A stretch of DNA of 64,000 bases from Bacteriovoracia bacterium (GCA_050246755.1 JBFWVL010000005.1:160001-224000), one strand, 5' to 3'. Positions 4,642 through 41,622 are shown, counted from the first letter of the stretch. Numbers and translations are program-made. Notes: generated from the letters alone by a model not told the origin.

Positions 4642-4643
4642 TT

Positions 4644-5483: not shown

Positions 5484-5496
5484 ACGCGCCTCCAAA

Positions 5497-6228
5497 TTAC
5501 TTGCCGGTTTTCGGTTGATTGATCGGTTGCGCAGCTTTGAAACCATCAGCGCGCGACCGCTTTAACGAAGTGATTTCGAGATACCACTCCTTGCCCTTCA
5601 TGGGCGGTACAAGCCGCATCGTCAGTTCAATCACTTCATCGACACGACCAAGACTCTCGCTATTCGAATAGCGTTCACGGTTCGCGATGGCCGTCATTTT
5701 GTAGAAGCCTTCGCCCGTGGCGACAGCCTCACGATCAGTGATTCTCAGAATCTCTGAGATATTTTCGTTTTTGACCGTTTCTCGCCACTCAGCGACTTCT
5801 GCCTCGAACTGAACGCGGAGCTCGGGAGCCATGAACGTCGCCAGGCGCTTATACTGCTCGTCGATGTTTGCGGCATTTACGTTTCCGAGCATCGAGAGGA
5901 AACTCATTCCGGCATTTACGACATAGGAATCGCTAACGGTTTGCGGAGCCGCCGTCGTGAAATCCATCACACCAGGAGCGAGGATGTATTCCTTCTCGCG
6001 CAGTTTCTTTTCCAGTCCATGAATCTCGATTCGCGAGAATGCGAAATTTGCGGCGAACGCGGCGACATGGATTGCGAGGATGTATTGGAGAGTAAGACGC
6101 TCTTTCAGCATCGCCGCTTTGAATGCCACAAACTTCGGGAGCACCCGCAAATCGACGCCTTGATAGACGCCGACCGGCCGGGTCGCGACTTGCGCTGCTT
6201 CAATGCCCTTATCCATTGCTGTCAGCAT
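5497..6228 (-). CDS. traE: TraE-like (VirB8-like) transfer protein
   Basis: Single TM, then VSDSYV...LGNVNAANIDEQY. Position upstream of traK. Start estimated at ATG 6228. Confidence 0.65.
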   Translation of the reverse strand: MLTAMDKGIEAAQVATRPVGVYQGVDLRVLPKFVAFKAAMLKERLTLQYILAIHVAAFAANFAFSRIEIHGLEKKLREKEYILAPGVMDFTTAAPQTVSDSYVVNAGMSFLSMLGNVNAANIDEQYKRLATFMAPELRVQFEAEVAEWRETVKNENISEILRITDREAVATGEGFYKMTAIANRERYSNSESLGRVDEVIELTMRLVPPMKGKEWYLEITSLKRSRADGFKAAQPINQPKTGK

Positions 6229-6448
6229 CTCGTTTGCCTTTCCGCTTAGTTGACTTCTCAGTCGCTGGAGTGGCGGCTCCAGGCGCCTCGACAGCGCGAT
6301 TCTTAGCGATAACGTCAAGGTACTTAGCCGAGACGATCCAAGTTTCCACGCGCTTGAAAATCCAGTAACGACCATCGCGAGAAAGGCGCTGAGTAAGTTC
6401 GAGATTAGGTTTGCGCTCGAAGCGTTTCGGGTTGTCTCCATTTTCCAT
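6209..6448 (-). CDS. Small hypothetical protein (79 aa, MENGDNPK...)
   Basis: ATG 6448 preceded by GGAGG. Fills the gap between traL and traE. Confidence 0.55.
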   Translation of the reverse strand: MENGDNPKRFERKPNLELTQRLSRDGRYWIFKRVETWIVSAKYLDVIAKNRAVEAPGAATPATEKSTKRKGKRDADSNG

Positions 6449-6498
6449 TGGGCCTCCATTTGGTCTTGTTTTACGCTCACGTTTAAGTCCTCTCTTGG

Positions 6499-6813
6499 TT
6501 AGTCCGAGTACAGCCGCTCGCGGCCTCTCGGATTGATTACGCCCGGCAGGTCCATTCGCAGACGTGCGTAGGGCCAATGAAAGAAAATCCCCTTCGGATA
6601 CTTCCGCTTGATGACCGGGCCTGCGCCGAGACAAAGCAAGAGAAGCGTGAACATCGTTCCCCATGAGTAAAAGAGGACGCCGAAGATCAGGATGATGAAG
6701 AGCGCAATGAACACGTCTTGAAGTTCCCAGAAATCGAACACCATAATTGGCGAGTCGATTGTCTGGCTTACAAGTGAGGCGTGGCGCGCTTTTAGTAGTT
6801 CTTGCTTACGCAC
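6499..6813 (-). CDS. traL: TraL-like (VirB3-like) membrane protein
   Basis: IDSP..FWELQD, two TM segments, KRKYPKGIFFHWPY. Directly downstream of the pilin. GTG start estimated. Confidence 0.75.
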   Translation of the reverse strand: MRKQELLKARHASLVSQTIDSPIMVFDFWELQDVFIALFIILIFGVLFYSWGTMFTLLLLCLGAGPVIKRKYPKGIFFHWPYARLRMDLPGVINPRGRERLYSD

Positions 6814-7255
6814 GCATGGTCTCCACGGAGATAGCGGGCGCACTCATGGAAAAGATTCCGCCACCGCCGCCTATGTCGAAAATGTTCTTTACCCAAGTAG
6901 GTGCGGTTCCGAGAACGATGGCCGCTACGATGCACAGAACGGCGATCCCGAATCGTTGCTCCTTCAGATTCCAACCGGCTGACATCACGCAAAGACCCGC
7001 AAAGATTCTGGCTCCCCAGGAGAACAGAACGGAATCGACGATGCGGAGAAGAGTTCCCGCCGCCTCAAGTTTGTCGCTCGCGTCTTGCCCTGGAATACGG
7101 ACTGTTGCCCCGAAGGCTTGCGCGTGCGCAAACCAAAGGAGCAGCATTGTAATCAGCAGAAATAAAAACCATTCCTCACGTTGCCGAGGATTGGGACTCT
7201 TCAGATGTGAACCGTGGATTAATGATCCACACAGCAATAGGCGCTCTCCGAGCAT
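6806..7255 (-). CDS. Conjugative pilin (TraA/VirB2-like)
   Basis: Long signal ending AQAFG, then two hydrophobic helices. Position upstream of traL. Confidence 0.7.
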   Translation of the reverse strand: MLGERLLLCGSLIHGSHLKSPNPRQREEWFLFLLITMLLLWFAHAQAFGATVRIPGQDASDKLEAAGTLLRIVDSVLFSWGARIFAGLCVMSAGWNLKEQRFGIAVLCIVAAIVLGTAPTWVKNIFDIGGGGGIFSMSAPAISVETMRA

Positions 7256-7363
7256 AGGAATTCTCCTTCGTCGGAAGCCCGCTCGCCTTTGGTGGTGGAG
7301 AGACTTCTAAATTAGATTTTTTAGCTTCTGCACTTGGTAGTGGTGAGCAGAAGTCGTTTCATA

Positions 7364-8128
7364 TCAACCGCGACTGGCCTCGCGAAGCAGCGCCATCACT
7401 TCTTCGAATTCATGGTAGCCCTGAATTCCTGGGAGAAGCGCCTTTCTCTTCAGATCGGCGATCACCAGGAACGGAACTGCCGTTCCTCCATGACTCTTCA
7501 GCTCCGCAAGATTGGCTTTGCCTATCGGCACGCCTTTTTCATCCGGAGGCACTTCTCCGTCATCGAGTTGAAGGGCTTCGATTTTGTAGCCTTCGTCTTG
7601 CAGCCGCTTCAGTACGGAGAACATTCGCCGACAATGAGGACAATGAGAGTCGAAGTACATTCGGATTCGGAATCTCGACGGATCAGGCCGCACCTGTGGA
7701 GCGACTTTCGCATCATTCTTTGCAACCCGAGTGGCTATCTGAACCGCAAGGCCTGGCCCTTCTTGCTTGCTGAGATACTCTTGCATTCGAGTTTCGAGCC
7801 GCGCGGCGAGTTCGTTTTTTCGTTTCATAAACTCGAACCAGTTCTTGAGGTTCTCGTCCGACGGGTCCTTCGCAACTTCCATGAATGGCTCTGGCGGCGT
7901 ATAGTCGCCTTCCTTAAAGAACTCCTTGTTCTTCGGGTCGAGGTAGGTCTTCCAAGGGAATGAACCCTTTTCTCCTCGCTCGGGAACAAGTGGAGAAGGA
8001 ATGTCCTTTGTTTGAGCCTGAACACGTCCTTCGTTCCAGTAGTCGATCTTTTGATCGAAGTATTGGAGTTCACCGGCGCTCGCTGCGGTTGAGAATAAGC
8101 ACAGCGAGAAAACCCATTGGCTAATCAT
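7364..8128 (-). CDS. TraF/TrbB-like thioredoxin-fold protein
   Basis: Signal peptide, DPSDENLKNW helix, FDSHCPHC CxxC and cis-Pro AVP. Start at ATG 8128 overlaps the upstream stop. Confidence 0.7.
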   Translation of the reverse strand: MISQWVFSLCLFSTAASAGELQYFDQKIDYWNEGRVQAQTKDIPSPLVPERGEKGSFPWKTYLDPKNKEFFKEGDYTPPEPFMEVAKDPSDENLKNWFEFMKRKNELAARLETRMQEYLSKQEGPGLAVQIATRVAKNDAKVAPQVRPDPSRFRIRMYFDSHCPHCRRMFSVLKRLQDEGYKIEALQLDDGEVPPDEKGVPIGKANLAELKSHGGTAVPFLVIADLKRKALLPGIQGYHEFEEVMALLREASRG

Positions 8129-9302
8129 TCGCACGCGACACCTCCAGGGAATCAATTTCTCCGCGAAGGACGCGCGCAAGGCGGGCCTCGTGGATCGTTT
8201 GGTGAACTTTGACGATTTTCTTTCCCTCTGCCGGTTCCATCGTTGCCCACTCAAGAACAGGAACACGCCCGCGAATCCCAGCGCAGCAGTTCGAGCATCC
8301 TTGCTCGAACCGCTCGCGGGCTCGCATTGCGGAAGGTCTCTTTCGGCGGTCGATGCGTTGGAGCCATGCAGCCGTATCCATTGAGGGCTCAATCGCGCAA
8401 TCTGCGCAAAGCCGCTGTTCCAAACGCTGCGCAATCGAGAGTCTCAGATTCGATTCCATCACGATACGTTCGACGCCGAGACCTGCGAGACGCTCGATAA
8501 CTTCGAGCGAACCGTTTGCGTGAAGTGTTGTGAAAACAAGATGCCCGGTTTCCGCCGCTTGAAAGCAAAGTTTTGCCGTTTCGGCATCTCGAACCTCGCC
8601 GACCAGGATCACATCGGGGTCCTGCCGTAGCACGGATCGCAGAGCATCGGCGAAGCTCATCTTGCGGCTGACCTGCACTTGATTGAGTCCTTCAATGCGG
8701 TATTCGATGGGATCTTCCAGCGTCACTATGTTGAAGCGCTTGGGGTTGATGGCTTTGAGGCACGCATAGAGAGTTCGCGATTTTCCACTTCCAGTCGGCC
8801 CGGAGACGACTACAACGCCATCTTCGAGTGAAATGGCTCGCCTAAGAGCGGCGATCTCGTTCTCCAGGAAGCCCAGGCCATCCAGCTCGAATGTCGCATC
8901 GAGGTTGAGCAAGCGCATGACGATCTTTTCTCCGAAGTGAGTAGGCAGAAGACTTACGCGTACATCCATTCGGAGACTTGGCATCGACGCGCGCCCATCT
9001 TGCGGGCGACCGCTAACGCCAATCGAGAGACCGAAAATTCGTTTGGCTTCTAAGATCAAGCTCTCCCTGTGCTCCAGTTCGACCTGCTTTTCAAGGATGA
9101 GATTTCCGTCCACGCGGAGTCTTAAATCAACTCCGCTCTCATGCGGCTCAATATGCACGTCACTCGCGCCGCGAGCCTTCGCCGCTTTCATCAGGTCGTG
9201 AAAGAGGCGCGCATAGGGACCGCTCTCCAAAAGCAACTGCTCGCTCGTTCGCCGTTTGGCGACGCTTACGCCGTGTTCCTTCTCAAGCATTATTTCCGTC
9301 AC
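8121..9302 (-). CDS. GspE/PilB-family secretion ATPase
   Basis: ASDVHIEP, RVDG, PQDGR, GPTGSGKS, TLEDPIEY, LRQDPDVILVGEVRD, TGHLVFTTLH, CxxC pairs. Confidence 0.9.
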   Translation of the reverse strand: MTEIMLEKEHGVSVAKRRTSEQLLLESGPYARLFHDLMKAAKARGASDVHIEPHESGVDLRLRVDGNLILEKQVELEHRESLILEAKRIFGLSIGVSGRPQDGRASMPSLRMDVRVSLLPTHFGEKIVMRLLNLDATFELDGLGFLENEIAALRRAISLEDGVVVVSGPTGSGKSRTLYACLKAINPKRFNIVTLEDPIEYRIEGLNQVQVSRKMSFADALRSVLRQDPDVILVGEVRDAETAKLCFQAAETGHLVFTTLHANGSLEVIERLAGLGVERIVMESNLRLSIAQRLEQRLCADCAIEPSMDTAAWLQRIDRRKRPSAMRARERFEQGCSNCCAGIRGRVPVLEWATMEPAEGKKIVKVHQTIHEARLARVLRGEIDSLEVSRAND

Positions 9303-12300
9303 TGCGCACCTGCGCAGGCTGCGGGGATTGCGAGAGCTGCCGCTTGCGCCTGAACCGCAGTCGGCATTTCTTTACAGGCAGTGGTGCGGTTCCAGATCAC
9401 GAACAGATAGCCCTTCAGTTTGCCGCTCGCTAGCCGCATGGTCTCGCGTGAATTTTTGATCGTTTCGAGCAATCCTATATTTTGTCCTTCTCGGAAACAT
9501 GAACTCGATTGAGGGTAGATCATCTGCCACTTCTCATCCGGGCCGCTCGGCATTGTATGAAGGACTTCGGCAGACAAACTCTTGATTCGCGAGGCAATCA
9601 TAAGAGCGCCGGCCATCGAAGCAGGTCCCGTGTATGTGCCGTAGCGCGGATAGAAAGTCCCCCAGCCATTGCAGGCCGGATGCGAACTGGGAGGAAGAAC
9701 ACCGATATTCGGCATCGGAGTGCCGCACATTGCGGAGTCCGATGAGTAGCTACTTCCAGGCGTGCCGGAAATGCTTGTGGCCGCGCCTGCAAGAAGACAG
9801 GCTTTCGGACTCAGGCTCCAAGCCAAGAAAAGTGGCTGGGTCAGATCACCTTTGCCAGTGTTCCAATGGCTGCCAAAGTCTTCGCTCATCCCATCGAAAC
9901 ACATTTTCTCGTTGCGCGTGCCGCCTGCTGGCATGAGCTTAAAGGTCATACTAGCGAACGGCACCGCAATCGTTCGAGCCTGGAAGCTTTGCGTATCATC
10001 ATCGGCCTCCGCGCCAAAAGGCATCGGAGTGACCTTCGAGAGCTGCGCCGCCGCTCCCGGAATGGCCGTGAAGTAGCTCGTCTTTGCCTCCGGCCAGACC
10101 TCAATGAACGTCTGAGGAACGTAGTACGAAATGAGTGCGCACGGATGCGGCGGGTATCCGCAGGTACAACCGCCAACTGCCAACTCAAGGCAGGACGAAA
10201 AGGCCGGACTACTTGCAACCGAACACACGTTCGGAATTCCTGCGGCTTGGACATTTCCGGCAAGCAGGAGTGACGCGGCTACTGCACGAGAGTTCCGAGA
10301 AAAGCTTTTGAGCCACGCCACAAAGCCTCCCTTTTTTGTTACCCGAAGCATTTCGAGAACCGTTTCGTGCTTCGTATTGACCGCCTTCAAGAAGTCGGGC
10401 TTGAGGTAAAGCTTGAGGAACTTCGTCTCGATGCCATCGAAAACTTGCGCGAACGCCTCAAAGGTTCGGAGGCGCGAAAATTCTTTGCCGGTCAGAATGT
10501 CTTCCCGGCGTGTGCCACGGCTCACGGCCTCGTTGAGACTGGAGTTCTTGGAATCGAAACCACCCGCAAGAAGATTTAGCTTCGCGGATTGCGCCGTTTC
10601 GGAAAACGAATGCGTCTGCGACTCCACATCTTCTTTTCCGGCGAGAGCTTGAAACATTTTGATCGTTTCAAGATCGGAAGAATGACAAGCAACGCGCGTC
10701 CGGAAGTTCTGCACGAGTTCAAGCGCTGGACGCTCTCTGCCGACGGTGTTCATCAAACTACTGAGCGACTGAGTTGCAACGATCACGGCAGGCTTTGATT
10801 CGCGGGCTTTAGCCATAAAGGAATCGTCTCCAAGCGTTCCTCCGCCTCCGCAGGTAACTACGTCCTGATACTCGTCAATGATGAGCGCCGAGGTTACCGG
10901 CATGTTCTTTTCTTTGAGCTCGGACAACAGATTCAACACAGCTTGCTCGTAGTGCAGCTTTATGAACGTGCCCATTGACCGCGCGAGGCCAGGCTGCTGA
11001 ATATCGAACAGTAAAATTTTTCCGCTCCGAACAAAGTCCTCCATCGAATGAATCGAAAGGTGTTCCTTGCGCGGACAGAAAATCCGACTGGCCGCAAACT
11101 CCTGAAACTGGTTCACAAAAGCAGTGCTCGTTGCCACGATTCCGGTACGAACGCGGTCTTCAAGTTGCGAGTATTCGTTCTCGAAATACTCGATGGCGCA
11201 ACCGATGTTGAACGCCTCTTCTTGCGTGAAGTTTTTCTCTTTGAGCACTTTTCGCAAATCGTCGGCCAAGTTGTTCTTCGCTGCGCGCACGATTGTTCGG
11301 TATAGATCGAGGAGCGTAAAGTATCCGTGAACCGCCGAGCAGTACGCGATGGTGTTGCGAATCAAATGGGAAGAAGACACGTCCCAAAACGGCGAATCAG
11401 ACGACTTGCCCATAAAATTCACAGCCGCGCAGCGAACCATCTCAGCGAGTGCTACAAACTTCGAGTCTTGCAGCGGATTCTCCATGAAGACTGGGTTGAA
11501 GCTTACGTTTCCCTTAAGTGAGAGTCTGACGATGCGATCCCCAAGACCGAGACGCCGGATCATATTCTCTGCTTCACGCAGGAACGTGCCTTTAGGGTCG
11601 ATGGCGAGGATCGAGGGAGGTCCCTTTGGTTCCGCGAGAAGCTGGCGAAGGTATCGCAGAATTGTGCCTTGGGTTTTCCCACTACCAATGCTTCCAGAAA
11701 TGAACACGCCACCGTGTACGCCGCGGCTAGGGATCGTTACCCATTCTTCGCGATCCTTATCTTCGACAGCTTCAAGCGCCCCGGGCGTTGTCCCTAACAC
11801 CATGTCTCCGCTTTCCTGAACAGGGCGTTCTAGCTTATGTGTGTCGGAAAGGTTGAATCGCAGGCTCCCTGCCAGCCTTAAGATCATTCGACACACGAAA
11901 TAGAACGCACCCGCCAGATTCGCAGAAAGTCCTACTTCGGCGAGCGACGTTGCGTTTGCCGAAATGAGCCGAAGAAAAAATGGAGCAAGGTCAACGACCA
12001 CGCTTCGCTTCGCCCCGAGGTACGCAACGGCTGAGAAAATTGCGGCGAGAATCTCGGCACGAGTGATAGCCCATCGCTCGGCCTTACCTTGTAGAATCTG
12101 AAGTTTGCTTCCTTGGCGTTCAAGGCCCACGCTTCGCTTCAGGAAAATTCCGAGAAAAGAAAGGTTGCAGGCGAACGCCACGACCGACCACCACCAGAAG
12201 GCACCGTGCTGCTGCAAGAGCTCTTCAACGACGAGCATCTTCGCAGGTTCAAACCGCAGGAAGTTTAGATAAACGTATCCCGCTGCTACTACGACGAATG

Positions 12301-12352
12301 CCATCACAGCAATCGAAAGCGGAACATCGTTTTGGGTCTTGGCAGTGTTCAA
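9299..12352 (-). CDS. Type IV coupling protein (TraD/VirD4-like) fused to C-terminal TraU-like domain
   Basis: N-terminal TMs, GSIGSGKT, IDPKG, PFW, IIDEYQ, ATQS. After about aa 700 a Cys-rich domain with GWGTFYPRYG, KWQMIYP, YLFVIW. Confidence 0.8.
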   Translation of the reverse strand: MNTAKTQNDVPLSIAVMAFVVVAAGYVYLNFLRFEPAKMLVVEELLQQHGAFWWWSVVAFACNLSFLGIFLKRSVGLERQGSKLQILQGKAERWAITRAEILAAIFSAVAYLGAKRSVVVDLAPFFLRLISANATSLAEVGLSANLAGAFYFVCRMILRLAGSLRFNLSDTHKLERPVQESGDMVLGTTPGALEAVEDKDREEWVTIPSRGVHGGVFISGSIGSGKTQGTILRYLRQLLAEPKGPPSILAIDPKGTFLREAENMIRRLGLGDRIVRLSLKGNVSFNPVFMENPLQDSKFVALAEMVRCAAVNFMGKSSDSPFWDVSSSHLIRNTIAYCSAVHGYFTLLDLYRTIVRAAKNNLADDLRKVLKEKNFTQEEAFNIGCAIEYFENEYSQLEDRVRTGIVATSTAFVNQFQEFAASRIFCPRKEHLSIHSMEDFVRSGKILLFDIQQPGLARSMGTFIKLHYEQAVLNLLSELKEKNMPVTSALIIDEYQDVVTCGGGGTLGDDSFMAKARESKPAVIVATQSLSSLMNTVGRERPALELVQNFRTRVACHSSDLETIKMFQALAGKEDVESQTHSFSETAQSAKLNLLAGGFDSKNSSLNEAVSRGTRREDILTGKEFSRLRTFEAFAQVFDGIETKFLKLYLKPDFLKAVNTKHETVLEMLRVTKKGGFVAWLKSFSRNSRAVAASLLLAGNVQAAGIPNVCSVASSPAFSSCLELAVGGCTCGYPPHPCALISYYVPQTFIEVWPEAKTSYFTAIPGAAAQLSKVTPMPFGAEADDDTQSFQARTIAVPFASMTFKLMPAGGTRNEKMCFDGMSEDFGSHWNTGKGDLTQPLFLAWSLSPKACLLAGAATSISGTPGSSYSSDSAMCGTPMPNIGVLPPSSHPACNGWGTFYPRYGTYTGPASMAGALMIASRIKSLSAEVLHTMPSGPDEKWQMIYPQSSSCFREGQNIGLLETIKNSRETMRLASGKLKGYLFVIWNRTTACKEMPTAVQAQAAALAIPAACAGAQ

Positions 12353-12366: not shown

Positions 12367-12411
12367 AAAAAACCCACCTCGGAGGCCGGGGGAAACTGCC
12401 CCCGAGGTGGG
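12367..12411 (-). terminator. Intrinsic terminator-like hairpin between lipoprotein gene and T4CP gene
   Basis: CCCACCTCGG...CCGAGGTGGG stem followed by T6 on the minus strand. Confidence 0.55.
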
Positions 12412-12431: not shown

Positions 12432-13445
12432 TCAGCGGTAGGTATCGGTCAGGTCGTCGGTAATAAGATCGCTAGGATAGAACTTCATCGAGACGGACTT
12501 TCCCATCATCGGAAGCGAATACGCCTTATCATTCGTGAACACAGTGAGATCACGAGTGAAGCGAAGAGTAGCCTCGTCATCGCCGAATCCCAGGTTCAGA
12601 ACGCCGTTGTACAGTTTGAGCGAACCGTTCACTCGGCTCCAGTAACCCGTGTCGATAATGTACGTCGTTACGAATCCCACGGTTGGCGCAGCTCCTTGCG
12701 CCACGATCGCGTATGAGCCGTCATTCTGAAGAATGAGGCGCATGTTCTTGATGAAGAATCCGTTGACGTAAATCTGCTGGTCTGAGTAGAGAGCGTTCAG
12801 TTGGATCGTCGAGCGGTCCGCACGCGCTTGAAACTTCTGGAACTCTCCAAGAGTGTCTTCCGGATTCGGGCACGTCTCACGCTCAGACTTGATCGCCGAA
12901 GTAGACCAAACCATGTGGCCCATAACCATGCGTCCACCAAGACCAGGGCTCATCATATCCTTCTTGTAAAGGATGTTCGCCTGAATCCGCTTATCGACCT
13001 CTCGACCGACAATCTCCATTACGTCGCCGAGAACGAGCTTCCCGTTCACTTGAGAGTAGTTTCCGGACACCACGCGCGATTTCATTTTCTTGTAGGCGTA
13101 ACCGCTGTCGGTGTACTTCAGGATGTATTTCTCGGTAATCTCCACTTCGAAACGCTTGTTCGGATAGAGCAGAATTCGCGAATCGACCATCACGTCCTGG
13201 CCGTCTCGCTGACCGATCACCACGTCGTCGGCAGTCAGGAGCTTGAAATAGAATCCTTGCTGTCCGCAGACTCCGCTCGTGTCGTAGAGGAAGCGGTTGT
13301 AGTCGAATGCTACGACGGGCTTCGGTTGATTCCCGGAATCGTCCGGCACGCCGACGCCACCGACGGTCTCGCTGGATTCGACTCTACCTGAGCACGCTGC
13401 GAGGGTGAGGGCCATCATCAAGAGGGCTGTGATCTTGAACTTCAT
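12432..13445 (-). CDS. Lipoprotein of unknown function with two similar beta-rich domains
   Basis: Lipobox LAAC and RBS AAGGA. 337 aa. Confidence 0.8.
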   Translation of the reverse strand: MKFKITALLMMALTLAACSGRVESSETVGGVGVPDDSGNQPKPVVAFDYNRFLYDTSGVCGQQGFYFKLLTADDVVIGQRDGQDVMVDSRILLYPNKRFEVEITEKYILKYTDSGYAYKKMKSRVVSGNYSQVNGKLVLGDVMEIVGREVDKRIQANILYKKDMMSPGLGGRMVMGHMVWSTSAIKSERETCPNPEDTLGEFQKFQARADRSTIQLNALYSDQQIYVNGFFIKNMRLILQNDGSYAIVAQGAAPTVGFVTTYIIDTGYWSRVNGSLKLYNGVLNLGFGDDEATLRFTRDLTVFTNDKAYSLPMMGKSVSMKFYPSDLITDDLTDTYR

Positions 13446-14544: not shown

Positions 14545-14561
14545 TTGCAAGAAGATGCCCG
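14545..14561 (-). promoter_or_regulatory. Possible sigma54 promoter for the small-gene/transfer region
   Basis: CGGGCATCTTCTTGCAA fits GG-N10-GC with a good TTGCA, but the -24 element is non-canonical. Confidence 0.35.
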
Positions 14562-14636
14562 AAATGGTCACAGCAGATAAATAGTGGGATTGCTGAAGGA
14601 ATCCGTAATCTCGGAAAAAACGAACTTTCTTAAATG

Positions 14637-14755
14637 GTCTATCTAAATAGACCCGAGTCTTTTGAAATAGACCCGCGCCAGATTTTCTGGCTCAGGTCTT
14701 CGCTGCTGCGATCTGGATAAAGGGATCTTAGAGAAATGAGTCTACAAAAACAGAC
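14637..14755. promoter_or_regulatory. Three GTCT-N8-AGAC palindromic sites (putative enhancer/UAS)
   Basis: 14637-14652 GTCTATCTAAATAGAC, 14657-14672 GTCTTTTGAAATAGAC, 14740-14755 GTCTACAAAAACAGAC. Confidence 0.65.
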
Positions 14756-14773
14756 TCGGGGTACGCGAACGCG

Positions 14774-15802
14774 TTAGCGTGCTGCGGAACTGAATGTCCT
14801 GCCGCCGAGAGACGCGGAAACTTCGCTTCCTCGAACTTGAACGGAGAAATCCGAATTGGATAGGGAGCATCCTTTGTCATTACTCAATAGCTTCGCAATG
14901 TAGAGGAAGCCTGTGGGCATCAGCGACGCGATTCGCCCTGAATTTAAAAGCTCCGAGACTAAAGACGCTTCACGGGCCGCGCCCTTCTCGAAAACAGCCG
15001 GAAGAGTCACGGGCAAGTAGTTGTCGTGCTGGTCTGAATAGGCATGAACCTGCGCTTCACCTACGAACTTAAAGAAATAGGGAACGTCACCTCGTCCGAG
15101 TTGCTCGACCTCGGAATCAAAAAGCGGAATTTCGGGTGGCTTCTGAAAAGCTAAGCGGTAGTGGATTGTATCTCTTAAGATATGGCGAATCGGAATCTTC
15201 TTGAACGTAGCTTGCTGGTCTTCGAACACGCGCTGTATCCCCGCAAGGTTCGAAGTGATGCACGAAAGTACGTCATAGTAACCGCGAAGAACAATCTCGA
15301 TTTGCTCAGAAGAAACAATCGCAAGGCTCAATATTGACGAAGCACCGCAGAGGTCGGCGTCGACTTCCTTAAACGGCAGTAAAAGCGTCTCATGCGGAAG
15401 CAGCAAGCGGGAAAGAACCACTTCAGCATCAACGACTTGAATGTGCGTCTCCGTCTTTACCACGTTATTTCTGTGCAAGTCGCGGATTCCGAAAACATAG
15501 CAGTATCCGAGGAGCACACCGAGACTGTACAAATGGGAGCCTGTACTTGGACCCATAGACGCGCGCACTTCCCGGGAAGACCCCTTGAAGTCAGCGCCCA
15601 TCTCTATTTCGAGATTGAAAATCGTCTGCGCAGGGGAAGCTGAGAACGTCGAATTTTTGAAGAAAAATGAGAGTGGACTGTCCTTACCAAAGAACAGCCA
15701 CTCCCAATAGATTGGGCGAGGTTTCTGAAAGATCATTTCAGAACCCCGTCCTATCTTTTGGACCGATTGTCCAAAATTATGGAAATCAGCCTCGAACTTC
15801 AT
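14774..15802 (-). CDS. Stand-alone LanM-type dehydratase domain (DUF4135)
   Basis: DFHNFG, KPR, DLHRNN, VDAE, LLP, RHILRDTIHY and GDVPYF match the LanM kinase/elimination motifs. No LanC cyclase domain. Confidence 0.85.
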   Translation of the reverse strand: MKFEADFHNFGQSVQKIGRGSEMIFQKPRPIYWEWLFFGKDSPLSFFFKNSTFSASPAQTIFNLEIEMGADFKGSSREVRASMGPSTGSHLYSLGVLLGYCYVFGIRDLHRNNVVKTETHIQVVDAEVVLSRLLLPHETLLLPFKEVDADLCGASSILSLAIVSSEQIEIVLRGYYDVLSCITSNLAGIQRVFEDQQATFKKIPIRHILRDTIHYRLAFQKPPEIPLFDSEVEQLGRGDVPYFFKFVGEAQVHAYSDQHDNYLPVTLPAVFEKGAAREASLVSELLNSGRIASLMPTGFLYIAKLLSNDKGCSLSNSDFSVQVRGSEVSASLGGRTFSSAAR

Positions 15803-15808
15803 TGGCAG

Positions 15809-15889
15809 TTAGTTTGAGCTACTGCCAGAGATGTAAGAGTCTGCTTCGGCCTCAAGTGCCGCCAGATTAATTACGATTTGCTCTTGCAT
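15809..15889 (-). CDS. Putative RiPP/autoinducer precursor peptide MQEQIVINLAALEAEADSYISGSSSN (26 aa; not in ORF track)
   Basis: AAGGAG RBS 5 nt before ATG. Fills the gap between the kinase stop and the DUF4135 start (6 nt after TAA). Ser-rich C-terminus. Confidence 0.8.
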   Translation of the reverse strand: MQEQIVINLAALEAEADSYISGSSSN

Positions 15890-15910
15890 GGTCTCTCCTT
15901 TCTTTCTTGT

Positions 15911-17704
15911 TTAGATAACACCCAGAAAGGAAGCCTTTTCAGGCTGCCCCCCACTAATAACCGGTACAATTCCTAAATAGTCTTTCGACAGCCAACGCAC
16001 TCCGAGGCGGTTTGTCCGACTTCGTACTTCAGCGTTTTCCGCCATGCCCGAAATTAAGATACTTTCAAAAGACAGGCCAAATCTCTCGATCAAATCGAGT
16101 CCGCTCGCGTCCTCATCCTTCAAATCACAATCGAACAGATAAAGTCTTTCGCCGAATTCTCCATGACCATTGGCTTCAATCCAATTGGTGAACGCCTCCA
16201 CTGAGGAGAGGTGAACTACTTCTGAAGGTATGGTTCCGAGCTCAGATAGCCTTCGCTGCCAGAGCGAATGAATCAGCGAGTCGTCATCTACAATGACAAC
16301 CTTCCCCTTGGCGGGAAGTTCAACGCAGTCCAGGAAGAGGTCTACTTTCCTAGAAAGTGGAATTCTCACCGCGACAGTTGTTCCTTCACCGATGGAAGAC
16401 TCAATTTGAATTGAGCCTCCAACCTTTTGCAGAACTTCTTTCGCATGGGTGAGCCCAATGCCGTTGCCGTGAGGTTTGCCAAAAGTAATCCTCTCGCTAA
16501 GAAGTTTCGAAAGAACTTCCTGCGGAATTCCTGTTCCATTGTCCTTAAAACGTATTTCCAAAGTCTCTTCGACTTTAGTTCCCGCTATGGTAATTCGTCC
16601 GCCTGTCCCAATGGCCTCGAAAGCATTGTCCAGGATCGTTGCGAACACCGTTTCGAGATCGCCGAGTGTCATGGCGCAAAATGAACCGAAGAACGCAGAT
16701 TCGTTTACGAACTCAACAGACGCTCGGAGGCTGGCGTACTGCGCCCGCTTTGAATCAGAAACGGTTTTGATTGTAGATAAAATGTGAATCGGCTCTTGGG
16801 TGGAAATCGATTCCGCCAAAACATTCGCGGCGGAGCTGCGATTCAACAAGCTGCCCGAAACGTCCTTTAAAGATGCAACGCAATCATTTAGGCTACGCTT
16901 GTCCTTCAACGAAAGATTCGGGATTTCATTGATTCTTAGCTGGAGAGTCGCAATCACGCCCTTAATAGCGTGTGCAACTTGCTCAGCCAGAGCCAAACGC
17001 AACTTATCCATTCCGACTGTTGCTAGATTCCTTTCCAGAACGACAATCTGCTTTAGTAACGTGGAAATCGAAGTAGTCAGCTCCTCAATCTCAAGAATTT
17101 GCGAGCGAGCGACTGGAGGCTCCTGTGCATGAGCAGAGTCAGGAAGCCCTTTTGCTACAAATTTGAGCCACTGAATTCGATTTTCGAGCGGTCCAATTAC
17201 CAGGTTGATGGTCATTCGTCTCATCCACCACATCAAAACCAGGAATACGCATCCAATGAACAGCGCAATCGAGGCAAGCAGTAGAACTCCGGATTGGATG
17301 AAACTCGCCAGGCTGACCTCTACGATGATCGAAAGCATCTGACCGGAGGGAAGGGGCGTTGTCTCTTCCACTCGCGAATGGAAAATTCCGAAGGGCTGCA
17401 ATTGCCCAGCATGGCTAATCAGCTTGCCGTCGAGTGAAATGTCCACGCGTAAATCCAAGTCTTGGGTCTCTTTCCACGTTTGTGTGAATCGCGCGATCTC
17501 CTTGTCGATCTCGTTCACGTTCTGGGAGTTCACGCCTGCTTCGGCCAACGCCGCAACATGATTGGTTACGAATCGCATTGCTTGGGTTTCTGTCTTCTTC
17601 AGCGAGTAAACGGAGTATGCGAGCAAAGCCAAGCCCGCAGCCCCAAGGCTCAGGGCCAGGCCGCGTTTTAGAATGCTGAGAATGACAGAGTAGATCGAGG
17701 TCAT
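15911..17704 (-). CDS. Hybrid sensor histidine kinase (2 TM, HATPase, C-terminal receiver)
   Basis: QVAHAIKG H-box, DNAFEA, DNGTG, GNGIGL. Receiver VDDD...D...SG...K. Confidence 0.9.
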   Translation of the reverse strand: MTSIYSVILSILKRGLALSLGAAGLALLAYSVYSLKKTETQAMRFVTNHVAALAEAGVNSQNVNEIDKEIARFTQTWKETQDLDLRVDISLDGKLISHAGQLQPFGIFHSRVEETTPLPSGQMLSIIVEVSLASFIQSGVLLLASIALFIGCVFLVLMWWMRRMTINLVIGPLENRIQWLKFVAKGLPDSAHAQEPPVARSQILEIEELTTSISTLLKQIVVLERNLATVGMDKLRLALAEQVAHAIKGVIATLQLRINEIPNLSLKDKRSLNDCVASLKDVSGSLLNRSSAANVLAESISTQEPIHILSTIKTVSDSKRAQYASLRASVEFVNESAFFGSFCAMTLGDLETVFATILDNAFEAIGTGGRITIAGTKVEETLEIRFKDNGTGIPQEVLSKLLSERITFGKPHGNGIGLTHAKEVLQKVGGSIQIESSIGEGTTVAVRIPLSRKVDLFLDCVELPAKGKVVIVDDDSLIHSLWQRRLSELGTIPSEVVHLSSVEAFTNWIEANGHGEFGERLYLFDCDLKDEDASGLDLIERFGLSFESILISGMAENAEVRSRTNRLGVRWLSKDYLGIVPVISGGQPEKASFLGVI

Positions 17705-19227
17705 TCAACGCTCATTTCGACGCTTTCAAGAGGGAGCGTGTGAATCCCAAGCGGATGCGACGGCACTGACTTCACCCGACGGCTCCAAAGCCCAGAGGCT
17801 TCAGATCCGAAAAAAAGCGGAATCACAGTATTGTGTGCCAGAATTTTCTTTTGGATGTCCTTGTAGGCGTTCGCTCTGTCTTCTGGATCAACAATTTGAA
17901 TCACGTTGAGCAGAGCACTATCGACAGCTTTATCATCGACGTAAAAGTAATTAGATTCGTATTTGCCTTTGAAATAACCAAGGACAGAAAAGCCATCGGG
18001 GTAGTCCATCGCTTTTCGTGCGATGATAGCTTGGGACTTTTTCCCGAAGAGGCGCTGGAGTTTCTCACCCTTTGACAGTGCATTGAGCTTCACGGTTACG
18101 CCAAGTAGCGCCCACTTCTCTTTTAGAAAAAGTGCCGTCTTCTCTTCCAAGTTTGATGCGCCCTCGTAGTCCATCTCAATGACGATTGGCTTCGACGGTT
18201 TTGCCGACTTCATCGACTTCAACTGCTCCACGTCGGTTGCACTAAGTTCTCCGGCTAGACCAAATGGAATCAGGCCAAATGCCGCGCGATAAGACTGATT
18301 GCCAAGACTGCGAATGATTTCTGCGGAATCTACGGACGAATAGAGCGCGCGCCGCACATCACTCGGGACCTTCTCAGGATTGAAAACTACAAAAACTTCT
18401 CCCGCAAGTTCAGTAGCGGCGGCGGCCCAGCCCTGCTTTTGGAGTTTGGCCTTCTCGATATCGTCGATCCGATAGTGGTCGAGTGTATCAATCTTTTCAG
18501 CCAGCGCGAGCTCAACGGGTTTCTCGGCGACCATCGAATACGAAATGGATTTAGGAGGCAATGGGCTGTCCAGAGCGTCAGGTCTCCATTTCTCGATGGT
18601 GAGATTGGTCTTTGTTACTTCGCCGACGAGTTTGTAAGGGCCGCTAAACGCTCCCTTTGCTGAAATCTCCGGATTCTGTTTGAAGTCGTCAATCGGAAGG
18701 ATTGAGCAATCGGCTACAGCGAGTTGCTTCAGGAAAATGGCCGAGGGCTCGCTCAGTCGGAATTCGACAGTTTGATCGTCGATTGGAACCACTCCGAATT
18801 TTCCGATCTCCTGCTGGGTCTTGAATGCCCTCGCACCAGAAATGTAGTCAATGTCAGCGGCCATCGACGCTCCGACAAGAAACATCCTAGCGAACGTCAT
18901 TTGGACATTCTTGGCGGTGATCGGTTTTCCATCGGAAAATGTGGCTTTGCGTATTTTGAAGCGGTACGTCTTGTGATCTTCCGATTCAGTCCACGATTCC
19001 GCCAGGTCAGCGCGGATATCTCCGGTCGTGTTGTATCGGAGAAGCCCACGGTACAACTGAGTAGCCACAGCCATCGAGTACGCGTCTTCCATTTTCTGCG
19101 GATCGAGATTCATCGCCACCGCCGGCAAATGAATTCGCAACCCTTCAATCGCAGGAGTTTTAGATTTTGTGCAACTGACCATCACAGCTCCTAAAAGGAT
19201 GAATGCAACACCTCTACAAACGTGCAT
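17701..19227 (-). CDS. Family-5 (OppA/DppA-like) solute-binding lipoprotein, no cognate permease
   Basis: Lipobox MVSC, LDP, LYRGLL, DLAESW, FSDGKPITA, SGPYKL. Confidence 0.9.
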   Translation of the reverse strand: MHVCRGVAFILLGAVMVSCTKSKTPAIEGLRIHLPAVAMNLDPQKMEDAYSMAVATQLYRGLLRYNTTGDIRADLAESWTESEDHKTYRFKIRKATFSDGKPITAKNVQMTFARMFLVGASMAADIDYISGARAFKTQQEIGKFGVVPIDDQTVEFRLSEPSAIFLKQLAVADCSILPIDDFKQNPEISAKGAFSGPYKLVGEVTKTNLTIEKWRPDALDSPLPPKSISYSMVAEKPVELALAEKIDTLDHYRIDDIEKAKLQKQGWAAAATELAGEVFVVFNPEKVPSDVRRALYSSVDSAEIIRSLGNQSYRAAFGLIPFGLAGELSATDVEQLKSMKSAKPSKPIVIEMDYEGASNLEEKTALFLKEKWALLGVTVKLNALSKGEKLQRLFGKKSQAIIARKAMDYPDGFSVLGYFKGKYESNYFYVDDKAVDSALLNVIQIVDPEDRANAYKDIQKKILAHNTVIPLFFGSEASGLWSRRVKSVPSHPLGIHTLPLESVEMSVE

Positions 19228-20392
19228 AACCAGCTCTTTGCTTCGCCTGAAATCTCGGCAATGTCATAAGGCCGAGTACGATCGCGCAAAAGGCTCCTCG
19301 CCACAGTCCATCGGCAAATACCGGGAGAACCTTGCTCCACGATCCCACCAGGAGTTCGCCGCTCGCAAGAATGACAACCATTTGAGTCATGCGCGCACTC
19401 GTGACTGCTCCCATCTTTTCCTGGGGTGTATCCATCTGAATGTGCGCTGAGATTCTATGAAGAATCAGCCAGTAAAACGTATCTTTGGAGAGAGCGAGAG
19501 CAACCGTTATCCAGCCCATGCCAGAAAAGTAGCCGAGCATGCCATAAGAGACCGCAAGCCCGATCCAAAGAGACGATGAACGCTCACTAAGGGAATTGGA
19601 CCGCTCGATATATCCGGCAAACCACACGGCGACTCCGTAGATACCAATTAGAAGTGCCATCCACTTTTGATCGTCGCCCACCAGACGAGCTGTGAAGGAG
19701 GTCGTTCCCATCATTGAAATGGCCAAGAGCAAATCTAAGACGGCAGCGCGACTATTGTATCTGTAGAAGTCGGCGAACTTCGCGAAGACACTCTCGGCAA
19801 ACGAAGCTGCTCGCTCAATCGTGGGCTCCGCAATTGGCAAGAAGAATACAATGATTCCATTTGCCGTGAATGTCGCGAGATCGAACCAGATCGCAGTTTC
19901 GAATGTCGAATACTTAATGATGGGCCACGCGCAAAGACCGGCGAAAAGTGTAGCTCCTTGAGTTGCCTTGTTGAACCAGATTGCGTGACTTGCATTCGAG
20001 GCATACGAAGTGTCTGCCAAGAGCTTCGTGATCTTCGCTTTGCTGCCTGCCTGGAACGAAACGATGGAAGTTTTGAGTAGACTGAAAGCAACGAGTAGCC
20101 AGTATCCGTGGTGGCCCTGTTCCCAGGCCCAAAGAATACCGAGTGAAGCCGCAGCCGCACCAAGTTCAGCTACAACGATGGTCAGCCGCGGAGAAATAGA
20201 ATCGGTAACATGCCCGAACAGGCCAGCAATGATTATGGGTACTAACCGCTGAAGACCTAGAATTAAACTGATGTGAAAAAGGTCAAAGCCCCCCTGAACC
20301 ATGAAGGCAACCAAGCAGATATTGAACGTGAAACTCCCAATGGAAGAAAGGAGCGTGCCCAAGTAAAACCAAGAGGCTAGGTTCATTTTCAT
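19214..20392 (-). CDS. MFS transporter (putative peptide exporter)
   Basis: About 12 hydrophobic segments, GHVTDSISPR motif A-like, PQEKMGAV. Confidence 0.85.
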   Translation of the reverse strand: MKMNLASWFYLGTLLSSIGSFTFNICLVAFMVQGGFDLFHISLILGLQRLVPIIIAGLFGHVTDSISPRLTIVVAELGAAAASLGILWAWEQGHHGYWLLVAFSLLKTSIVSFQAGSKAKITKLLADTSYASNASHAIWFNKATQGATLFAGLCAWPIIKYSTFETAIWFDLATFTANGIIVFFLPIAEPTIERAASFAESVFAKFADFYRYNSRAAVLDLLLAISMMGTTSFTARLVGDDQKWMALLIGIYGVAVWFAGYIERSNSLSERSSSLWIGLAVSYGMLGYFSGMGWITVALALSKDTFYWLILHRISAHIQMDTPQEKMGAVTSARMTQMVVILASGELLVGSWSKVLPVFADGLWRGAFCAIVLGLMTLPRFQAKQRAGYARL

Positions 20393-21870
20393 GATACTGC
20401 CTCCTCGGTCTCCGCAGACTCGCCGAGAAGACGTTTCTTTCTGTTGAAGTAAGCTGCCTTCGACATTCCGAGAAGCGTATAGAGGAATCTGTTATTCCCA
20501 TCGAAAAGCTTCAATCCGCTGGCTAGATACAAGCGTTCCATCCATTCGAGGGCCGACTGAAATTGCGCTGCGGAAACATCCTCCTTCGAGCGCGGAAGCA
20601 GTCCATCGGGAATGAAAATTAGCTGATCCGGCGAAACAGCATTCGGATCAAGGCCAAGGTGTTCAGGTTTCAACACGGGCCTGGAGGAACCCTTGATGTC
20701 AATGTAAGCGCGTTCAACCGCATTCTGAAGCTCTCGAATGTTCCCACGCCAAGGATATGCAGCGAGCACCTTGCGTGCGGGCACGGAAATCTTTCCCATT
20801 GGAAGTCGGCGCTTCAAAAACTCCTCGGCCAAATATTCGATGTCCTCTGGACGCTCTCTCAGCGCCGGGACGCGAAGGGAAATCTGATTGAGACGGTAGA
20901 AGAGGTCTTCTCTGAAACGTCCCTTTTTGATTTCGGCTTCCAGGTCTCGGTTTGTAGCCGCAATCACGCGCACATTCACGGTAACGGGCTTGATGGCACC
21001 CACTGGAGTAAAGGTTTGTTCTTGGAGAACTCGCAAAAGCTTAGCCTGCATTTCCAAGGGAACTTCACCGATCTCATCGAGAAAGATGTCACCACCGTCG
21101 GCAAGCTTGAATTGGCCCTGCTTCGCCTCTGATGCCCCGGTGAAGGCGCCTTTTGCGTGACCAAACAACTCACTCTCGAAAAGGTTCGCCGGGATCGCGG
21201 CGCAATTGACGGCAATGAATGGTCGCGAGGGATCGTCTTCTTGAAGGTTGAGATTCCTGGCTACTAGCTCTTTTCCGGTTCCGTTTTCTCCAGTGATAAG
21301 AACGTAGGAATGTGTTCCCTTCATTCTCAGGATGTCGCGACGAAGCTTCAAAGTAACTTCGGAAACGCCCAATATCTCGTATGAACGAACATGCGTTGCG
21401 AGCTTGGCCGTTAATTTCCGATTTTTCTCAAACTGCGTTTCGTTTTCCTGAATCAGAGTCCGATTTCGTCGAAGGATCGCAGCTTTCTCCAATACGTTTG
21501 CCACGCGAAATTTTAGGTTTGCTGCAAATTCATCCGAGCCTTTGATGACGAAATCGGCCGCGCCAGCCTTCATCGTTTCAATAATGGTTTCGGGCTGACT
21601 ATTTCCGGTCAACATCACGACAGGGAGCTCGGGCATTCGGCGCTTGAGGAGCTTCAAAAATTCCAGCCCTGAAATTTGAGGTAAACCAAAGTCGAGAAGA
21701 ACTAGATCGGGCCGGAACTGGCCGAGGACCCGCATCGCTTCAGTCGGCTCATGGACCGTCGATACCTCGTGCTCCTGGCGAAAAAGAGCTACAACGGACT
21801 CAGCGAAACGCTTGTCATCGTCTACGAGCAGAATCCTTAAAGCTGGTGTTCCTTCTGGGCTTTCCGGCAT
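20389..21870 (-). CDS. Sigma54-dependent response regulator (NtrC-like)
   Basis: Receiver domain, GENGTGKE, ESELFGH-GAFTGA, FLDEIGE, FREDLFYRLN, WRGNIREL, C-terminal HTH. Confidence 0.95.
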   Translation of the reverse strand: MPESPEGTPALRILLVDDDKRFAESVVALFRQEHEVSTVHEPTEAMRVLGQFRPDLVLLDFGLPQISGLEFLKLLKRRMPELPVVMLTGNSQPETIIETMKAGAADFVIKGSDEFAANLKFRVANVLEKAAILRRNRTLIQENETQFEKNRKLTAKLATHVRSYEILGVSEVTLKLRRDILRMKGTHSYVLITGENGTGKELVARNLNLQEDDPSRPFIAVNCAAIPANLFESELFGHAKGAFTGASEAKQGQFKLADGGDIFLDEIGEVPLEMQAKLLRVLQEQTFTPVGAIKPVTVNVRVIAATNRDLEAEIKKGRFREDLFYRLNQISLRVPALRERPEDIEYLAEEFLKRRLPMGKISVPARKVLAAYPWRGNIRELQNAVERAYIDIKGSSRPVLKPEHLGLDPNAVSPDQLIFIPDGLLPRSKEDVSAAQFQSALEWMERLYLASGLKLFDGNNRFLYTLLGMSKAAYFNRKKRLLGESAETEEAVS

Positions 21871-21883
21871 AAGCCGGAGACAT

Positions 21884-21900
21884 AGCTAGGTTCATGCCAA
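21884..21900 (-). promoter_or_regulatory. Sigma54 (-24/-12) promoter of cassette 1
   Basis: TTGGCATGAACCTAGCT = TGGCA, GG-N10-GC, just upstream of the regulator gene. Confidence 0.65.
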
Positions 21901-21985
21901 AACGGAGGGCTTTACTCAACTACCTAAAATTGCAGGAGAATGGCTCTGGCAGCGGCTCTCGGGTGATTTCGAGGTATCTAAAAGA

Positions 21986-22001
21986 GTCTATATAGATAGA
22001 C
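21986..22001. promoter_or_regulatory. GTCT-N8-AGAC palindrome (putative UAS) about 90 bp upstream of the sigma54 promoter
   Basis: GTCTATATAGATAGAC followed by CCG, as in the sites at 14637 and 14657. Confidence 0.65.
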
Positions 22002-22090: not shown

Positions 22091-22504
22091 CTAACGGAAT
22101 ATGGCGAAGCTCGCTATCAGCTTGAGCAGATCAGCACATGCTCGGCCGCCGATCACAGCTAGGAAAATTTCAGCCCAACGGGGAAAGCGGAAGACCGGGA
22201 ATTCCAATTTCCAAGAATTGAATCCGTACCCACTTCTACGGTGGCCGGAAGCGATTACAGCTTGGGCGTCGATCATGACGAGTTGAGCTTGGTGCATCTT
22301 CTCGGGACCGTAGTGTTGAAAGAGCCGATATAGCTCGCGGCAGGGAATTTCGGACGGCTTTTTTTCAATGTCTAGGAGTCTCGCTTCGGAGATTCCGAGG
22401 GAAGCCGCAACTTGTCCCGCACTTTCTCTTCGCTGCGTTCGTGCGCTGTAAAGAAAGCGACCCAGCTTCCGATTCATCGTAGCCCTTACTAATTCTCTGT
22501 CCAT
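22091..22504 (-). CDS. XRE-like HTH protein with hydrophobic C-terminus
   Basis: LGRFLYSARTQRRES..VAASLGIS...IEK. ATG 22504 follows AAGGAGG. Confidence 0.65.
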   Translation of the reverse strand: MDRELVRATMNRKLGRFLYSARTQRRESAGQVAASLGISEARLLDIEKKPSEIPCRELYRLFQHYGPEKMHQAQLVMIDAQAVIASGHRRSGYGFNSWKLEFPVFRFPRWAEIFLAVIGGRACADLLKLIASFAIFR

Positions 22505-22528
22505 CGTGCCTCCTTCAGCGATCACGCC

Positions 22529-22592
22529 GCATACGATCGTATGCACATTAGTTCAGAAAACCATCGAAAATCAAGTGCATACGATCATATGC
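22529..22592. promoter_or_regulatory. Pair of 16-bp palindromic operators between divergent XRE genes
   Basis: GCATACGATCGTATGC (22529-22544, perfect) and GCATACGATCATATGC (22577-22592). Confidence 0.7.

Positions 22593-41545: not shown

Positions 41546-41622
<77 letters not shown>

Follow-up and report, generated by a model that had tools for sequence, protein, structure and literature searches.

Signal-controlled conjugation is already known from Rap-Phr, pheromone and LuxR systems. The TraR-TraI system of the Ti plasmid relies on an autoinducer-responsive activator of the transfer genes. In the Vibrio LuxP-LuxQ-LuxO pathway a sigma54 activator is under the control of a sensor kinase that receives its input from a binding protein, and the ligand switches the kinase off. 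Sigma54 promoters obey a strict spacing rule of 10 bp between their -24 and -12 boxes; over-long spacers are found in MerR-type promoters, but MerR acts on sigma70 promoters and binds between the boxes. Here we analyzed a stretch of 64,000 nucleotides (the window) from a Bacteriovoracia bacterium (GCA_050246755.1 JBFWVL010000005.1:160001-224000), corresponding to G000:C5:160001-224000 of its own 3.55 Mb genome (G000). It harbors most of a predicted integrative and conjugative element (ICE) of approximately 49 kb, which carries four palindromic sites. On the minus strand of the element, genes for an XRE-like protein, a sigma54 regulator, an MFS transporter, a family-5 binding protein and a histidine kinase are followed by a 26-aa open reading frame (ORF), a DUF4135 gene, a zinc-finger gene, four small genes, a lipoprotein gene and the F-type tra genes. 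The four palindromes are probably the binding sites of the sigma54 regulator of the ICE itself, which would activate its signalling operon and the operon at the head of the transfer genes when a peptide that the element itself makes, and probably dehydrates, is sensed.

The predicted system resembles ICEBs1 (RapI-PhrI; PMC5812530) and pLS20 (Rap-Phr), in which transfer is controlled by a peptide that is encoded on the element and signals how dense its carriers are. However, the Rap-Phr systems use unmodified peptides, re-import by Opp and a cytoplasmic Rap protein together with a repressor in Gram-positive hosts, whereas the route predicted here, in a diderm host, runs from a modified peptide through a solo binding protein and a membrane kinase to a sigma54 activator. 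ICEMlSym R7A shares an autoinducer-responsive activator that turns on transfer genes (PMC5812530), but like the Ti plasmid it employs an acyl-homoserine lactone and a LuxR protein instead of a peptide, a two-component relay and sigma54. The layout of binding protein, kinase and sigma54 activator is that of LuxP-LuxQ-LuxO; in contrast to that pathway, the binding protein is a family-5 peptide-binding protein, no LuxU was seen and the output differs. The LuxO model matches the regulator with 282.7 bits, far below its cut-off of 800. Common to the locus and to the NtrC, NifA and Nla28 promoters are an activator with receiver, AAA+ domain with GAFTGA and Fis-type helix-turn-helix (HTH), palindromes 100-200 bp upstream and, at the cassette promoter, canonical -24/-12 boxes (PMC7057263). 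Unlike in those systems, the target is the conjugation operon of a mobile element, the site varies by element, and most transfer promoters lack a correctly spaced consensus -24 box. As in MerR promoters, conserved mis-spacing of the boxes could serve as a regulatory lock, but no protein or site between the boxes was identified here. Judged from its predicted genes and sites, the system would operate in the manner of known quorum-controlled conjugation, with a different set of components. Neither sigma54-driven conjugation nor ICE regulation in Bdellovibrionota was found in the literature searched (mostly at abstract level, with few subscription papers and no supplements), and the available parts of PMC12715929, PMC12316311, PMC12642874 and PMC12096077 do not mention the system.

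Palindromic sites upstream of the two operons

The first-pass annotation of the window had noted four GTCT-N8-AGAC sites, three upstream of the transfer region and one upstream of the signalling cassette, and all four lie exactly where it had placed them (Table 1). It had also named a motif at background frequency as an objection to its reading. The pattern occurs six times in the window as an exact match, with a mean of 0.73 in shuffled sequences and six or more in none of 100 shuffles. The whole genome contains 27 exact matches, thus the 8-base pattern alone is not rare. The four sites fall into two intergenic stretches (~500 bp), in which ~0.003 would be expected, and share a consensus longer than that noted earlier, R-GTCTAT-N4-ATAGAC-Y. 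A matrix derived from five sites outside the window (four from locus L001 and one from L035, a close relative) was used to scan the 3.55 Mb genome and placed the four sites at ranks 1-4 (23.3, 22.3, 21.6 and 18.9 bits). The next match reached 18.4 bits, which leaves the fourth site a thin margin of 0.5 bit. By the shuffles and the ranks the motif is far above background. The two remaining window matches, at 33287 and 59264, are outside the top 30 of the matrix scan and are probably background.

Table 1. Coordinates of predicted features, counted from the first letter of the window.
Feature	Position	Strand	Remarks
tRNA-Met	41546..41622	-	3' 11 bp recur at G000:C5:152180, just past the integrase gene; predicted att ends
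XRE-like gene upstream of cassette	22091..22546	-	weak HTH matches
Single palindromic site, predicted activating site of cassette promoter	21986..22001	.	centre -120.5
Canonical sigma54-type cassette promoter	21885..21899	-	GG-N10-GC; predicted start ~21873
Sigma54 enhancer-binding response regulator	20389..21870	-	receiver, AAA+ with GAFTGA, C-terminal Fis/NtrC-type HTH (Pfam, alignment, model)
MFS transporter, likely peptide exporter	19214..20392	-	MFS_1 match weak, below cut-off; conserved in cassette
Solo family-5 solute-binding lipoprotein, likely peptide receptor	17701..19227	-	SBP_bac_5, OppA-like
Membrane histidine kinase	15911..17704	-	HATPase_c
26-aa precursor peptide	15809..15889	-	conserved leader, Ser-Ser near C terminus, no Cys
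Stand-alone LanM-type dehydratase domain (DUF4135)	14774..15802	-	CylM match
Distal palindromic site, transfer promoter	14740..14755	.	centre -212.5
Tandem site 2, transfer promoter	14657..14672	.	centre -129.5
Tandem site 1, transfer promoter	14637..14652	.	centre -109.5; 20-bp period with site 2
Handicapped sigma54-like transfer promoter	14547..14561	-	perfect -12 TTGCA; -24 degenerate at 10 bp or GGGCA at 9 bp; predicted start ~14535
C4 zinc-finger protein, 73 aa	14267..14488	-	conserved first gene of Bdellovibrionota transfer operons; in 60/401 genomes
Four small co-oriented genes, 54-87 aa	13447..14247	-	gaps <=19 bp; homologues in F-type relatives
Lipoprotein gene, inserted cargo	12432..13445	-	absent at this position in L162, L164, L170 and L180
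Strong intrinsic-terminator-like hairpin and T run	12372..12411	-	between lipoprotein gene and virD4; -30.2 kcal/mol over 46 nt
F-type tra genes (VirD4/TraD fusion, PilB-like ATPase, TrbB-like, TraE, TraK, TraB, TraC)	3..12352	-	continue leftward off the window

Distances of the site centres were measured from the predicted start sites of the two promoters. The cassette site and both tandem sites fall into the range of approximately 70-150 bp upstream of a -24/-12 element that is expected of an upstream activating sequence (UAS), and the distal site is further out. These distances are consistent with the enhancer geometry of 100-150 bp (PMC7057263) or 70-150 bp (PMC3844500) upstream. Position and copy number recur in relatives: a single site is found between -118 and -126 of the cassette promoter, and the three sites of the transfer promoter are near -107/-109, near -128/-129 and between -188 and -222.

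Relatives of the window proteins were found in Bdellovibrionota records. Among 74 loci fetched with the dehydratase alignment (duplicates included; loci carry L numbers) the five-gene order of the cassette is kept in 25, and type IV secretion system (T4SS) genes of F-like and VirB2/3/4 types follow the dehydratase gene in 15. The dehydratase gene is present in 28 of 401 sampled genomes of the phylum. For the zinc-finger gene, 60 of roughly 100 listed places were fetched. Of the 62 loci in which enough DNA was available, 59 have a T4SS gene downstream. Of the 54 loci with at least 8 kb of upstream DNA, 42 have a sigma54 regulator gene within 11 kb on that side; many of these regulators belong to cassettes of another kind, and many are oriented away from the tra operon. 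Activator, sites and the two promoters would constitute a defined regulon that recurs across a phylum of predatory bacteria. In two loci another protein seems, by eye, to occupy the zinc-finger slot, namely a zinc finger of the DksA/TraR type in L105 and a sigma region-4-like protein in L013, with the same enhancer sites and TTGC box; the first gene of the transfer operon may encode an RNA polymerase-binding factor.

Palindrome arms and the recognition helix of the regulator

The regulator has the composition of a sigma54 activator (Table 1), and the alignment shows the invariant aspartate of its receiver. The C-terminal domain was modelled with a predicted local distance difference test value of 82, and a search with VIA-align retrieved the DNA-binding domains of NtrC4, Fis, NtrX and NtrC1 as best fold matches with modest Z scores of 6.8 to 5.3; NtrC4 superimposes with a root-mean-square deviation of 2.8 over 67 residues (Z 6.8). 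HTH_8 was detected in 3 of 17 regulator homologues. About half of the homologous regulators in the alignment (A3) have GSFTGA in place of GAFTGA.

The arms of the palindrome differ between loci but match at both promoters of a locus. The classes found at both are GTCTA (window, L001), GTCTC (L006, L011, L020), GTCCA (L105), TGTAATC (L018), TGTCGCC (L012) and GTTCG (L033, imperfect at tra). The recognition helix changes with them. AYFN or HYFN accompanies GTCTA (window, L001) and HYYR, DYYR or TYYR accompanies GTCTC (L006, L011, L020), while KTRYFE occurs with GTTCG (L015, L019, L033), RSFVHE with TGTCGCC (L012) and RNFVHG with TGTAATC (L018). Promoter pairs from the same locus scored 16.5 and cross pairs 13.1 (12 loci, automatic mis-picks kept), with a permutation p=0.004 that is overstated because related loci are not independent. 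In a second test of motif sharing, 6 of 10 loci exceeded all 100 shuffles. Within the genome itself, where up to six such elements or remnants were found and at least five have a private palindrome, five motifs gave no cross-hits over nine promoter regions, a diagonal that is partly circular since the motifs were taken from the same regions. With a private palindrome and peptide for each ICE, co-resident ICEs would not cross-activate. The paired variants of helix and site would represent a natural set of orthogonal sigma54 activators.

Several observations weigh against a common control of both operons by the regulator, in addition to the limits just given for the permutation test and the diagonal. 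The second test was not significant in the other four loci (L017, L033, L044, L047), the regulator gene of L044 has no recognizable sigma54 box, and one element of the genome (C6b) matched none of the five motifs. The matrix scan of the genome found no top-scoring palindrome near the integrase and relaxase genes. Complete cassettes without a T4SS match within up to 10 kb downstream occur in L015, L019, L021/L054 and L055. No integration host factor consensus (up to 2 mismatches) was found in the transfer promoter, and the cassette promoter has one site with 2 mismatches. The transfer promoter of the window itself has a poor -24 box, with GG at 10 bp, the rest of the box degenerate and a better box at 9 bp, and in this ICE the hairpin parts it from the tra genes.

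Supported by comparison, the palindromes nevertheless behave as UAS of the ICE-encoded sigma54 regulator that are common to its own operon and the operon leading into tra. The proposal of the first-pass annotation that the regulator drives its own operon and the transfer region thus stands for the shared sites, whose position and copy number are conserved and whose motif changes jointly at both promoters and with the regulator helix. Three points go beyond this support, namely that transfer depends on density, that the promoter reaches the tra genes here, with the hairpin located before virD4, and that the transfer promoter is an ordinary sigma54 promoter, given a -24 box that is degenerate in this copy and out of place in the majority of relatives.

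Extent of the transfer operon

From the zinc-finger gene to traC the genes are tightly packed apart from the hairpin between the lipoprotein gene and virD4. The regulator might therefore bind all four sites while transcription from the transfer promoter is limited to the zinc-finger, small and lipoprotein genes in this ICE, the tra genes being cut off by the hairpin or controlled indirectly by a small protein. We regard this as unlikely, although among the alternatives it fares best. The hairpin and T run lie 20 bp before the virD4 start and leave little room for a separate promoter. Both the lipoprotein gene and the hairpin are missing in four F-type relatives (L162, L164, L170, L180), in which the last small gene is joined to virD4; hence the present copy may be dampened. 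However, in the stretch from the zinc-finger gene to the first T4SS gene only 3 of 60 relatives have a terminator-like signal, no more than coding controls do, and the gaps are short, which indicates that the family design is one operon. The lipoprotein gene is also present in related DNA from other studies, which suggests that the arrangement is tolerated. The piecewise cover by contigs of related elements contained no joint that skips it, which favors neither side. On the preferred reading of a single operon, this copy of the ICE may be dampened or reliant on read-through. A conserved terminator as a family trait, as in an antitermination model, was rejected on the count of relatives and controls. 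A similar hairpin is present in the remnant on C8 of the same genome.

Spacing of the sigma54 boxes

The cassette promoter is of canonical sigma54 type, with TGGCAY...TGC-like boxes and GG and GC 10 bp apart. The same spacing was found in 12 of 15 regulator (cassette) promoters, and box spacing in the host genome peaks at 10 only. The predicted start (~21873) is only 3 bp before the first ATG of the regulator gene (21870-21873); the mRNA may therefore be nearly leaderless, or the true start codon lies further in.

The sigma54-like element at 14545-14561 had been called weaker, and this is borne out by its boxes (Table 1). Upstream of 73 dereplicated zinc-finger genes out of 78, distances from GG to GC, between a GGCA-type and a TGC-type box, were 20 bp in 27 loci, 9 bp in 8, 8 bp in 7, 19 bp in 4 and 10 bp in 4, with 0.2-0.3 per distance in shuffled sequences. 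Among the 70 transfer promoters with a -12 anchor, 33 have a spacing of 19-21 bp, 16 of 8-9 bp, 6 of 10 bp and 15 another one. Thus 49 of the 70 are spaced at about 20 or 8-9 bp, and across the phylum a consensus -24 box at 10 bp is not the rule. A full -24 box at 10 bp is absent from all 56 TTGC promoters, whose -12 sequence is replaced by TCGC, TAGC or CTGC in the six canonical promoters. A few promoters, including those of the window and L001, have a bare GG at 10 bp in a degenerate box. In both spacing classes the distance of the enhancer sites is constant relative to TTGC but not relative to the displaced box, which suggests that TTGC is the functional -12 element. On a quick VirB4 tree (48 rows, the careful search being unfinished and rows without a long VirB4 match excluded) the 20-bp class shows 12 changes, at least 10 of them forced by strong branches, and its spacers have a mean identity of 0.39. 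The scattered occurrence and the dissimilar spacers suggest that the length is selected, and a clonal artefact was rejected on these grounds. An altered or second sigma54 was likewise rejected, since RpoN is single and ordinary. One copy is present in the genome and one in each of 41 of 41 genomes of a class sample, and the distance from HTH to RpoN box is 72 aa in 31 of 31, approximately one residue longer than in PDB proteins. No widespread ORF cluster of the ICEs is confined to one spacing class; only small clusters of close kin are.

These promoters could form a non-canonical sigma54 class, with the -24 box displaced outward by a helical turn (20 bp) or inward by 1-2 bp. Such promoters would fire only under an enhancer complex that spans several sites and is activated by the peptide, possibly together with a helper encoded by the ICE, and would make up a locked and element-specific conjugation switch. 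We put this forward tentatively and consider it somewhat doubtful. The displaced box could be read by an RpoN domain one turn out, be a loading or decoy site, or be helper-dependent. The literature searched gave no precedent for a 20-bp spacing. A promoter search in PMC11997794 allowed 4-7 nt between the motifs, so that small deviations may be tolerated. In Myxococcus a 1-bp deletion in the spacer lowered the activity of sigma54 promoters 3.2- to 11.1-fold (PMC7910581), in support of the 10-bp rule, thus the 8-9 bp class may simply be attenuated. The conserved spacings of 20 and 8-9 bp touch a basic rule of sigma54 promoter recognition, and if the proposal is true, sigma54 can initiate from spacings thought forbidden.

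The displaced or degenerate -24 boxes of most transfer promoters, and the loss of activity in Myxococcus, would also fit a regulator that represses the transfer promoter or parks inactive sigma54 holoenzyme on it, the transfer genes being transcribed by another sigma factor or by read-through from the cassette. The scan found no strong terminator between the dehydratase and zinc-finger genes that would prevent such read-through. However, the sites are at activator distance and do not overlap the promoter, and their position is fixed to the -12 TTGC in both spacing classes. Moreover, many cassettes face away from the tra operon, which makes read-through impossible there, and between 12000 and 23000 one sigma70-like promoter was found against 6.7 expected, and none at the transfer promoter. 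Repression or parking is therefore very improbable in comparison with activation.

Two further features of the transfer promoters were observed. A GTGAGAGG-like motif at the predicted +1 (14486-14535) is conserved among them, and the leader in the window can fold over the ribosome-binding site (-13.6 kcal/mol), a possible translational lock.

Other readings of the palindromes

The palindromes could also be operators of an XRE-family protein, encoded by the XRE-like gene upstream of the cassette or elsewhere, a binding partner that the first-pass annotation had named as speaking against its own proposal. The end of the XRE-like gene is 90 bp from the site at 21986, HTH_3-type genes lie upstream of the regulator in L011, L019, L044 and L047, and the similar palindrome at 59264 adjoins an HTH_3 gene. 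This last one is part of a long palindrome (59257-59285) just upstream of that gene (58629-59006) and of a small, divergently oriented ORF. An XRE or C protein may have its operator there, without any relation to the enhancer sites. Among the 74 loci no homologue of the XRE-like gene was found, so that no conserved XRE protein co-occurs with the sites. L001 keeps GTCTA with an oxidoreductase gene upstream. L006 has the motif of L011, and L015 and L033 have that of L019, yet no Pfam HTH match was obtained in the upstream ORF of L006, L015 and L033; the motif classes thus hold whether or not an HTH gene lies upstream. In the C8 remnant a 32% homologue of the XRE-like protein is accompanied by a different palindrome. 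The XRE-like gene is not needed to account for the palindromes, and binding by an XRE protein in place of the sigma54 regulator is hardly to be expected.

That the palindromes are RNA hairpins terminating upstream genes, or chance repeats, is the least credible reading, because although the distal site lies 19 bp past the dehydratase stop and the 21986 site 90 bp past the XRE stop, and a simple scan calls both terminator-like, the stems are weak, the terminator scan total is at chance (12 vs 12.9), the arm sequence itself is common to both promoters beyond its pairing, and the position is fixed to the promoter though the upstream genes vary in kind and direction.

Signalling cassette and proposed mechanism

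Genes for signal synthesis, export and reception are linked to the tra genes, which at the level of gene content is the arrangement of quorum-controlled conjugation. The dehydratase matches the dehydratase part of CylM, and its invariant R206 and T212 align with R506 and T512 of CylM, which we take to be catalytic in phosphate elimination. It is not a class II lanthipeptide synthetase by its features, as it consists of a 342-aa dehydratase domain only, without a cyclase, and scores 32.7 bits with a cut-off of 304, and the peptide has no Cys. A small peptide ORF is kept between the kinase and DUF4135 genes in most homologous loci, with a constant leader and a variable Ser-Ser tail. The product of the cassette is likely a dehydrated signal peptide. 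In more distant cassettes (L023, L025, L026, L056, L057, L060) the dehydratase gene is divergent from the genes for MFS transporter, binding protein and kinase, and the DNA fetched gave no T4SS match.

We propose that the dehydratase modifies Ser residues of the 26-aa peptide, which would be exported by the MFS protein and presented to the histidine kinase by the binding protein. The phosphorylated regulator would then bind the sites via its Fis-type HTH and remodel the host sigma54-RNA polymerase. The cassette promoter, with one site and canonical boxes, would fire first and amplify the loop. The transfer promoter, with three sites and impaired -24 contact, would respond only to a larger amount of active regulator and so set a threshold. 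For full tra expression in this ICE, transcription would in addition have to pass the hairpin downstream of the lipoprotein gene. The response could have either sign, as the ligand in the LuxPQ system switches the kinase off. Activation at high signal, as in TraR systems, is slightly favored over a shut-off by the signal of the carriers, as with LuxPQ. ICEBs1 is a further example of shut-off by the signal of the carriers (PMC5812530).

Gene content of the element

By its gene content the element is classified as an ICE, with an integrase, a relaxase, a coupling protein and VirB4/TraC, and with predicted att repeats at a tRNA gene. The 11-bp repeat of the tRNA-Met 3' end past the integrase gene gives its size of approximately 49 kb; BLAST found no longer att repeat, only the 11-bp core. 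Genes for TraG, MobC, a relaxase, an excisionase-like protein and a tyrosine integrase lie beyond the left edge of the window. The VirD4/TraD coupling protein (9299-12352) has a fused C-terminal part of ~300 aa, rich in Cys and by eye similar to TraU/TraN, a fusion also found in L012 and L001, and in the same two loci, as in the window, a PilB/GspE-type ATPase gene (8121-9302) lies within the F-type tra operon. For the zinc-finger protein, Pfam and Atlas yielded only unnamed clusters and weak zinc-ribbon leads, and a predicted complex with the host sigma54 scored 0.00, with the partner fold uncertain. The cargo of the ICE (24012-40801) includes a SNF2 helicase, a DUF2779 protein, a radical SAM gene, an Eco57I-like restriction-modification fusion, SRAP, CoiA-like and ArdA proteins and an AbiEi/AbiEii pair.

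Other elements in the genome

A second ICE, with a radical-SAM cassette from 60042, has TGGCC-N8-GGCCA before its regulator (C5:219927, window 59927) and twice before a zinc-finger-like/VirB2-4 operon (C5:227046, 227103). Its transfer promoter has 10-bp spacing with GT in place of GC. Four further ICE-like elements or remnants with sigma54 regulators are located at C1:1314668-1324841, C6:33459-43643, C6:145759-155813 and C8:3814-10195. The C1 element carries TTCAA-N5-TTGAA repeats and 8-bp spacing, and C6a carries TTCAG-N5-CTGAA and 9-bp spacing. The C8 remnant carries CTCCG-N6-CGGAG, and its regulator is fused to the kinase by a deletion.

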